Shown: positions 39,431-40,517, counted from the first letter of the stretch. The stretch is 64,000 bases of DNA from an uncultured candidatus Porisulfidus sp. (GCA_965200865.1 CBDAVG010000002.1:1583942-1647941), one strand, 5' to 3'. Numbers and translations: made by a program. The notes: generated by a model not told the origin, from the sequence alone.

Positions 39431-39461
39431 ATCAGCTTTGCTGCTTGTTAGCATAAAAGAT
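39431..39461 (-). other. Orphaned duplicate of the last 9 codons plus stop of lgt
   Basis: The minus strand reads ATC TTT TAT GCT AAC AAG CAG CAA AGC TGA (IFYANKQQS*). The live lgt end at 39735-39764 reads [10 protein letters not shown] 19-nt identical core, GCTTGTTAGCATAAAAGAT, occurs at 39443-39461 and 39746-39764. Confidence 0.8.
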
Positions 39462-39483
39462 TGTAAGCACAAAGTAATAATGT

Positions 39484-39735
39484 GGGATTGTTGAAAAATA
39501 GAACCGCCGTTTGTTGCAAATAACCGTTCCTTGTTACAGTAGCACAAGGAATGTTAGGTTATACAAGATTTAGCTATTTATGGCTGTTAGAAATAACACG
39601 AATAGCAAAGACAAACGGCGTAACATTGTATAGAACCTCAACATGATTGTTAAACGCATGCATTACAAAATGCATAGGCCTGCCACCCCTCCAAAGGAGG
39701 GGAATATACTAATGCAGATACTTTTTCAACAGCCC
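39484..39735. repeat. Mosaic repeat cluster C3 (unit U with a ~95-nt insert in its hairpin loop)
   Basis: Order is GGGATTGTTGAAAAA terminus, TAGAACCGCCGTTTGTTGC...ACAAACGGCG split hairpin, GTTAAACGCATGCATTACAAAATGCATAGG module, CCCCTCC-AAA-GGAGGGG hairpin (39686-39702), then the CTTTTTCAACAGCCC terminus. Confidence 0.85.
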
Positions 39736-40517
39736 TAGCTGCGCCGCTTGTTAGCATAAAAGATCAACCCGACACCAACCGCAACCATTGCCAACGACAA
39801 TAGTTGCCCCATCGTCATCCATCCTAAAGCAACAAAGCCTATATGTGCGTCGGGCTCTCGGGTGAACTCAACCAAGAATCGTAGCACACCATAACCAATG
39901 GCAAAGTACGCAGCGACTCGACCTAAGGGGCGCGGTTTTTTAGAATAGAACCACAACACAATGAATAACACCACACCCTCCAGCAAAAATTCATACAGCT
40001 GAGAGGGATGACGCGGCTCAGAGCCAGCAATAGGAAACACAACTGCCCACGGTAAATCGCTAATCCGCCCCCATAATTCTCCGTTAATGAAGTTACCGAT
40101 TCTTCCCAAGCCCAAACCTATAGGCACAAGAGGTGCGATAAAGTCCATTATCCGCAAAAAGTTAAGCCCACGGGTGCGTGCAAATATCCAAACAGTTATT
40201 AGCACACCGAGCATACCGCCGTGAAAACTCATGCCACCTTGCCATATCATAAATAAACTCAGCGGCTCAGTCAGTAGCGTAGAGAAGTTATAAAATAGCA
40301 TATAGCCCACGCGCCCTCCGACAATTACGCCGATAATTCCGTAAAACAATAAATCGTCCAGCTTAGAGATCGGAACACCGTATAAAGGGTTGCGGGCGCG
40401 CATACGACCCAATATATAAAATATGATAAAAGCGAGTAGATACATCAAACCGTACCAATGTACCTGGACCGGACCTAAGGAAAATGCAACAGGGTTTATA
40501 TTCGGCAGATGAATCAT
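39735..40517 (-). CDS. lgt: Phosphatidylglycerol--prolipoprotein diacylglyceryl transferase
   Basis: 260 aa. HWYGLMY and [14 protein letters not shown] signatures. Conserved lgt-thyA neighbourhood. Confidence 0.95.

Follow-up and report, generated by a model that had tools for sequence, protein, structure and literature searches.

A composite repeat at the lgt stop codon of an uncultured candidatus Porisulfidus sp., flanked by a duplication of 27-28 bp of target DNA

In a 64,000-nucleotide stretch of DNA from an uncultured candidatus Porisulfidus sp. (the window, that is, the whole stretch analyzed here), a composite MITE-like repeat has inserted at the lgt stop codon without disrupting the gene. 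The insert is flanked by a 28-nt direct repeat, which is a genuine long target duplication, made of target DNA and not of repeat consensus. Demonstrated at this locus are the insertion itself, the target origin of the duplicated nucleotides, their exact abutment on both ends of the element and the source of the new TAG stop. As to how this arrangement arose, we give roughly even odds (a probability of about 0.5) to a single insertion at the lgt stop, in which 27-28 bp of target would have been duplicated in the same event via staggered breaks.

The lgt-thyA locus and its empty site

The gene lgt (prolipoprotein diacylglyceryl transferase; 39735-40517, minus strand) appeared in the ORF listing as an intact frame of 260 aa, whose product matched Pfam PF01790 (E=3.8e-81, residues 9-254). 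Together with thyA (thymidylate synthase; 38596-39387, minus strand, PF00303) and folA (38102-38599, minus strand, PF00186), both from the same listing, it forms a compact minus-strand row. Lgt is essential in model Gram-negative bacteria, and lgt and thyA are co-transcribed in E. coli. On the minus strand, the live end of lgt (39764-39735) reads ATC TTT TAT GCT AAC AAG CGG CGC AGC TAG, and a second copy (39461-39432) reads ATC TTT TAT GCT AAC AAG CAG CAA AGC TGA, with the thyA ATG 44 nt further on. The upstream copy of the duplicated target (39737-39764, minus strand) provides the live last nine lgt codons (IFYANKRRS), and the downstream copy (39434-39461, minus strand) is a non-coding relic that would give IFYANKQQS if read. 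The relic runs into the ancestral lgt stop TGA (39432-39434, minus strand), now 303 nt further downstream, and then into the native lgt-thyA spacer of 44 nt (39388-39431, minus strand). Between the two copies lies the insert (39462-39737, minus strand), a composite repeat of 275-276 nt without ORF.

The first-pass annotation had described a duplication of about 30 bp around a repeat between lgt and thyA, with an identical core of 19 nt common to both copies. The repeat search recovered it as a direct repeat of 28 nt (39434-39461 and 39737-39764), 25/28 identical (89%) at a spacing of 303 bp, in which the downstream copy differs from the upstream one at three positions (G>A, G>A and C>A). The unambiguous duplication is 27 nt long (39738-39764 = 39435-39461) and one extra T (39737) could be assigned to either target or element; the duplication thus measures 27-28 nt. 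The core was indeed present, at exactly two sites in the 64 kb even when up to three mismatches were allowed and at none in 100 shuffles, and, tandem paralogues and repeat modules aside, no other pair in the window formed a direct repeat of 27 nt or more (with no more than three mismatches, 100-1500 bp apart). The ancestral order is ...AGC/TGAttatcgg (the slash marking the joint), and in the window the element comes after AGC (or AGCT). Its terminal TAGGG makes the new lgt TAG (39735-39737, minus strand; element terminus TAGGGCTG). That this stop came from the repeat end, as had been supposed from the sequence alone, is borne out by the same element terminus ...CAGCCCTA, also written ...CAACAGCCCTA, at 1003-1018. 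Microhomology at the junctions was essentially nil, with one common T. The Lgt tail in the window stays basic, as in relatives, and the length of 260 aa, which is kept, is also found in most close relatives (P0002-P0006, P0008, P0009 and others).

An exact look-up gave no record of the window's Lgt protein. A protein search returned Lgt relatives at 76-95% identity; the first JGI-sourced match in this search (P0031) was 64% identical, and among the matches listed in a genome-contig search with Lgt identity was at most 62%. Loci of up to 21 kb from each relative were compared with the 64 kb from the window's genome. In seven relatives (L081, L085-L088, L090 and L091) the site was uninterrupted, consisting of one tail copy, a stop, a spacer of 43-44 nt and thyA, and alignment confirmed that the insert was absent from 7/7 of them. 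The lgt stop was TGA in L081, L083/L085, L084/L087, L089, L090 and L091, and TAA in L086 and L088. The annotation had proposed to look for such an empty site in related genomes, and its occurrence in seven of them agrees with the view that the repeat is an insertion and that the compact lgt-thyA spacing is ancestral; a duplication older than the element was not observed in these relatives, each empty site having one tail copy. It had also been proposed that the copy at 39432-39461 is the original lgt terminus. This is correct for its position, which is marked by the ancestral TGA and by the native spacer kept in the empty-site relatives, but not for its sequence: the empty site closest in sequence, that of L081, reading ATCTTTTATGCTAACAAGCGGCGCAGCTGAttatcgg, agrees with the upstream copy at 28/28 positions and with the downstream copy at 25/28.

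Sponge metagenomes contain reads of the window's organism, and they lead to the same conclusion about the insertion. In contigs of X1, X2, X4, X6 and X9 the joint leaves out exactly 303 nt, and 19 nt are compatible with either side; in X1 the empty joint had a depth of 59.6 (all depths given are assembler word depths, and the Logan contigs are short). Occupied and empty forms co-occur in X1 and X4. The occupied downstream junction (39380-39507) is spanned by a 147-nt contig of X4 with 1-2 differences, and the upstream one (39678-39810) by a 192-nt contig of X1 with 0 differences. Both occupied junctions are therefore present in independent public metagenome contigs, which excludes an assembly artefact in spite of a region rich in repeats; artefact or chance similarity, considering also that the core was unmatched in 100/100 shuffles, has a negligible probability. 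The duplicated 27-28 nt showed single-copy depth in the metagenomes and were absent from other repeat copies. A captured copy carried in by the element, an alternative raised at first, finds no support in these data, and the 19-nt identity is not part of the repeat consensus, as the core does not occur in other copies.

The inserted repeat and its family

The insert between the direct repeats (276 bp) shows the features of classical MITEs in being small (<500 bp), non-coding and without an ORF of its own, in having dispersed copies and in carrying terminal inverted repeats; it departs from them in its target duplication, which is 27-28 bp here instead of 2-10 bp. Repeat modules occur in at least seven clusters within the 64 kb, and modules of the insert recur at 877-1018, 13136-13287, 43536-44007, 53615-53914, 58149-58433 and 59869-60075. 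The terminal inverted repeat motif TTTTTCAACARYCCCA (the element-end motif of the family is also written TGGGRYTGTTGAAAAA) had 11 matches in the window against 0.18 expected. It is located at both insert ends in inverted orientation, and one pair bounds 39483-39737: TTTTTCAACAGCCCTA on the lgt side (39722-39737, plus strand) and TTTTTCAACAATCCCA on the thyA side (39483-39498, minus strand).

The interior is likewise modular. The inner part of the end module (39678-39721, minus strand) is a CCCCTCC-TTTGG-GGAGGGG hairpin (families D9, I6, I12 and I15-17) and is the most abundant module, with a word depth of approximately 145,000 versus approximately 65 for flanking single-copy DNA in X1; for element modules in sponge metagenomes in general, the depth excess ranged from 20-fold to approximately 2000-fold. 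The second module (39611-39677, minus strand) is an ATGCATT hairpin with the arm ...ACGCCGTTTG (family D8, copies at 43776 and 43882). A nested module of 92 nt (39519-39610, minus strand; inverted repeat I4) is located in the loop of a CGCCGTTTGT/ACAAACGGCG hairpin. Many other element copies skip 91-94 nt at this module and have a loop of 5-8 nt of variable sequence instead. It should be noted, from this nested module, that the mosaic repeat structure appears to be built by insertions into hairpin loops.

On the thyA side the element continues for 21 nt beyond the inverted repeat (39462-39482, minus strand; CATTATTACTTTGTGCTTACA). Although this sequence is unique within the window, the stretch 39462-39498 recurs in at least eight contigs (X1, X2, X4 and X9) whose flanks turn unrelated exactly before 39462. 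It is the extended terminus of a low-copy subfamily. A reading of these 21 nt as filler was rejected, since they recur as an element end with unrelated flanks. Because 39462 is a genuine element terminus elsewhere, the direct repeats abut both of its ends in the window without any filler sequence.

As RNA, the insert was predicted to form a multi-hairpin structure closed by the terminal inverted repeats (z=-4.55). An Rfam search over 38-45 kb gave just a tRNA and no family for the insert, and blastn of the element against a plasmid collection gave no match. The insert had no predicted minus-strand terminator-like site, and one promoter-like minus-strand site was found inside the element (39653-39625, 10/12), with counts not above those of shuffles. 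The transposases seen in the 64 kb and in the relatives' loci (up to 21 kb each) were an IS110-family one at 58811-59812 and an IS3-family one in L085, neither with the element's ends.

The length of the duplication had been called atypical, and the suggested check for long duplications at other repeat copies was carried out within the window; none was found. Neither 876-1018 nor 53614-53869, two copies that end in terminal inverted repeats, had a recognizable flanking duplication, and no long flanking repeat of unique DNA was present at the other window clusters. The copy at 53.6 kb was occupied in all strains compared, and the element sites at 47.2 kb and beside the tRNA were rearranged too far for their empty state to be read. 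The sole other readable joint was that of a 1984-bp insertion containing an IS110-family gene, with 7 nt fitting both sides. The relative L089, whose Lgt is 90% identical, carries a different insertion of 2.5 kb directly after the lgt TGA (L089:3784-6331), composed of repeat modules and a cassette that comprises three small ORFs and a gene for a Dam-family methylase (PF05869) and is flanked by 38-nt inverted repeats (3950-3987 and 5776-5813). No long duplication accompanies this insertion, and approximately 13 nt of the lgt-thyA spacer are gone. Long duplication is thus apparently untypical of the repeat family. Since the family otherwise lacks long flanking repeats, we regard the lgt case as aberrant, a non-concerted insertion that departs from the normal mode.

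Tail alleles and the origin of the duplication

The last three lgt codons are polymorphic in X1, X4 and X6, where KRRS (AGC or AGT), KQQS, KRRV, KQRG, KRRG and other tails were found. At empty sites, the R-type tail ...AAGCGGCGCAGCTGA is present in L081 and in X1 and X4, the Q-type tail ...AAGCAGCAAAGCTGA in X6 (a 139-nt contig), and the R'-type tail ...CGCAGTTGA in X4 and X6; the R'-type tail ...AAGCGGCGCAGTTGA is also the downstream copy of an occupied variant in X4. Both tail variants of the window are therefore also live lgt ends at empty sites in co-occurring strains. It follows that the three differences of the downstream copy need not be decay after the duplication, and that the two copies could stem from two different chromosomes. 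Neutral divergence would otherwise be compatible with an old insertion event, to judge from a comparison of sequences: the window and L081 differ at 24% of four-fold sites and at 7/44 positions of the native spacer, and the two copies differ at 3/27. L090, the closest relative in lgt (93% nucleotide identity), has CAG at codon 258, and the Q-type tail was absent from two further relatives in the cluster listing.

Insertions recur at the lgt stop, a hot spot for which at least three other alleles were found. Besides the L089 insertion, another allele in X1 and X4 has the same terminal repeat beside lgt and a different inner module, and one contig diverges within the tail, at 39450. Each occupied allele's relic tail has a live counterpart among the empty sites; this points to conversion between strains or to excision by way of the direct repeats. 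The Q-type live tail is identical to the downstream copy of the window, and the flanks of the Q-type contig, with 4/64 and 5/68 differences from the window, are nearer to it than those of the R-type, which differ at 10/69 and 6/67 positions. It is conceivable, though we consider it rather unlikely, that the Q-type empties (...NKQQS*) are revertants in which recombination between the 19-nt cores removed the element and rejoined the drifted relic tail to lgt. If so, a long duplication would let the C-terminus of a gene evolve 'off-line', in non-coding form, until excision returned it to use.

For the duplication itself we favor, by inference, a one-step origin through staggered breaks made by a putative enzyme or repair route. 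The target strands would have been broken approximately 27 nt apart, at TTG/ATC and AGC/T(GA), and the element joined between the staggered ends, after which gap filling would have left a copy of the 27 nt between the breaks at either end of the element. The upstream copy would then have remained fused to lgt, encoding its last nine codons with the element-derived TAG as stop, and the downstream copy would have been left as a non-coding relic that leads into the ancestral stop TGA, the spacer of 44 nt and thyA. In favor of this reading are the exact duplication of unique target DNA abutting genuine termini on both sides, and the diverged occupied variant in X4, whose downstream copy ...AAGCGGCGCAGTTGA departs from the ancestral tail by one change, in keeping with two copies that were the same at the start. 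Precedents for such long duplications are IS1630, IS1634/IS1549 and the insertions with long target duplication treated below. Against it count that the event is single, with no long repeat at other window copies or at the L089 insertion, and that each of the two copies, which differ at three positions, has a live counterpart of its own (of the R-type in L081 and X1, of the Q-type in X6). This last point, together with the hot spot, which makes two neighboring insertions plausible, makes unequal homologous crossover a serious rival, possible but in our judgment doubtful. According to this model, an R-type chromosome with the element at the stop would have recombined with a Q-type chromosome carrying an element 27 nt upstream (TTG/ATC), and an exchange inside the two elements would have joined lgt, tail and element to element, tail and spacer, doubling the intervening 27 nt. 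The distinct 2.5-kb insertion of L089 right after TGA, the X1/X4 allele with the other inner module, the contig diverging inside the tail at 39450 and the correspondence of the upstream and downstream tails to two live empty-site alleles are all in line with it, and recombination evidently adds and removes units in the module clusters of this lineage. However, the model calls for two elements inserted in one orientation at a distance of 27 nt and for a crossover between strains within approximately 250 bp, and the parent with the upstream insertion would have nine residues cut off its Lgt. Neither parental allele (the element at TTG/ATC, or the element at the stop followed by (T)GATTATCGG) was seen, and the occupied X4 variant with its R-like downstream tail means that changes after formation are needed here too.

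An origin without transposase, through break repair or homology-facilitated illegitimate recombination, appears improbable. Here either an lgt end with an adjacent element, for example from another strain, would have been anchored by homology in lgt and joined at ATC, or a free element fragment would have been caught at a double-strand break whose long overhangs were filled in. Long target duplications of variable length have been described where mobility genes are lacking, for the most part in species with natural competence (PMC2853133), the tails of the two copies differ and match two population alleles, and the junctions have essentially no microhomology beyond one T in common. But the insert ends exactly at genuine element termini, which is expected of transposition and not of a random captured fragment, and the lgt side is nearer to the Q-type empty strain (4/64) than to the R-type one (10/69), a poor fit to an R-type donor. 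Far less probable still is site-specific integration with the 19-nt core as attachment site and an element-borne lgt 3' end, in the manner of islands at tRNA genes. The layout, an identical core followed by diverged distal tails, does resemble attL/attR; nevertheless, this attachment-site reading was rejected, being contradicted by an insert of 276 bp without integrase or any ORF, by the single-copy nature of the core, which other copies of the element lack, and by an upstream tail identical to the ancestral chromosomal one, and the X4 variant has an ancestral-type tail downstream too. A dif/Xer-like reading of the 28 nt was also dropped: by eye, one arm was weakly alike and dyad symmetry was lacking.

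Related systems and neighboring rearrangements

The lgt locus is a single case of a rearrangement of an already described kind, with an unusually long duplication for such an element. The 'insertion with long target duplication' (Nobusato et al., 2000; Furuta, Abe and Kobayashi, 2010, PMC2853133) often spans start or stop codons, as in the 46-bp repeats that overlap the 3' ends of HI0105 and HI1589 (PMC2853133). As in this class, both repeats of the occupied genome align to one unique empty-site sequence, the insert has no integrase or transposase, and the repeat spans the stop codon, so that the gene survives. In contrast, the inserts of that class are kb-sized restriction-modification units with repeats of 46 to >400 bp, whereas here a non-coding repeat of 276 bp with terminal inverted repeats is flanked by 27-28 bp, which is below the authors' own threshold of >30 bp (PMC2853133). 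Inserts of the class carry no other mobile element or mobility gene; the present insert has no gene and is itself a dispersed repeat with terminal inverted repeats. Among insertion sequences, long duplications are known for IS1630 (19-26 bp) and for IS1634/IS1549 (8-514 bp) (PMC2853133, PMC2266710). IS1630 (Mycoplasma fermentans, IS30 type) and IS1634/IS1549 resemble the lgt case in variable target duplications far beyond one helical turn, but they are autonomous elements for which long duplications are the rule, whereas here there is no transposase and other copies have no long duplication. Moreover, IS1630 targets inverted repeats, and the lgt target has neither an inverted repeat nor structure: the empty site (L081:925-1025) folded no better than shuffled sequences (-4.4 kcal/mol, z=+1.68). 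As the target has no structure, the IS1630 mode, with a duplicated inverted repeat, is inapplicable.

A resemblance is also offered by QMITE1 and QMITE2 of Coxiella burnetii (PMC5896051), which are abundant hairpin-rich MITEs of a host-associated gammaproteobacterium and lie at or over the 3' ends of functional genes, where they can give a C-terminus or a stop. QMITE2 is targeted by IS1111 of the IS110 family, which parallels the IS110-family element inside repeats at 58.1-60.1 kb in the window. However, the direct repeats of these QMITEs have lengths of 2-4 nt and 7-11 nt, the sequences have no similarity to the lgt element, and no QMITE is described there with a 27-nt duplication remaking a gene end (PMC5896051). 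In HERV-K HML-2 (PMC5488345), too, a long target-site duplication is a sporadic and aberrant exception among duplications that are otherwise short or undetectable; as this element relies on a eukaryotic retroviral integrase, it serves as an analogy only.

The locus discloses no new kind of element or enzyme, and its main value is that of a tractable population-level test case. It is a compact natural example with a tiny non-coding insert, exact junctions and an empty site from several genomes, and co-occurring alleles in sponge metagenomes include occupied forms, empties that have one or the other tail, and further insertions at this site. Since several alleles co-occur, population data can be used to ask whether the origin was one-step or by unequal crossover, and whether it is reversible. 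The lgt 3' end can evidently tolerate repeated hits by mobile repeats.

Several other rearrangements were observed in the window and its relatives. The insertion of 1984 bp at 58121-60104 is absent from related strains (joint 58120->60105). It contains an IS110-family transposase ORF (58811-59812; PF01548 and PF02371), is embedded in mosaic repeats and is flanked by a 51-nt direct repeat of one module (58504-58554 and 59965-60015, 88%), and the IS110-family body at 58.1-60.1 kb is approximately 4-fold over-represented in the metagenomes. In the repeat cluster beside the tRNA (43464-44038), the number of modules differs in every strain, and at the same spot L087 has approximately 2.3 kb with phage-like genes (PBECR2 and Phage_tail_S; L087:4630-6960). 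An intergenic site just past a stop codon (47200-47250) has the full element, a remnant or another remnant depending on the strain (L085:3283-3506), a pattern that, from the sequences compared, seems to indicate recurrent insertion and decay at one point.

Tandem paralogues were also found. The region 8000-13132 consists of two tandem paralogous segments of approximately 2.6 kb, 85-89% identical, encoding sulfatase and Laminin_G_3 proteins; the ORF at 8562-10556 matches the sulfatase profile just from position 142 and may be truncated. At 32619-36378 there are three tandem paralogues of 350-364 aa with no Pfam match, varying from 2 to 4 copies among relatives, and in L085 an IS3-family element is inserted among paralogues of this type. 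Finally, L088, the most distant relative examined (84% Lgt identity), has a type III secretion cluster (HpaP, YscO, T3SS ATPase, SctL, YscK and CesT; L088:13968-20783) just downstream of the lgt-thyA-folA-mrp-dcd block, where the window and closer relatives have other genes.
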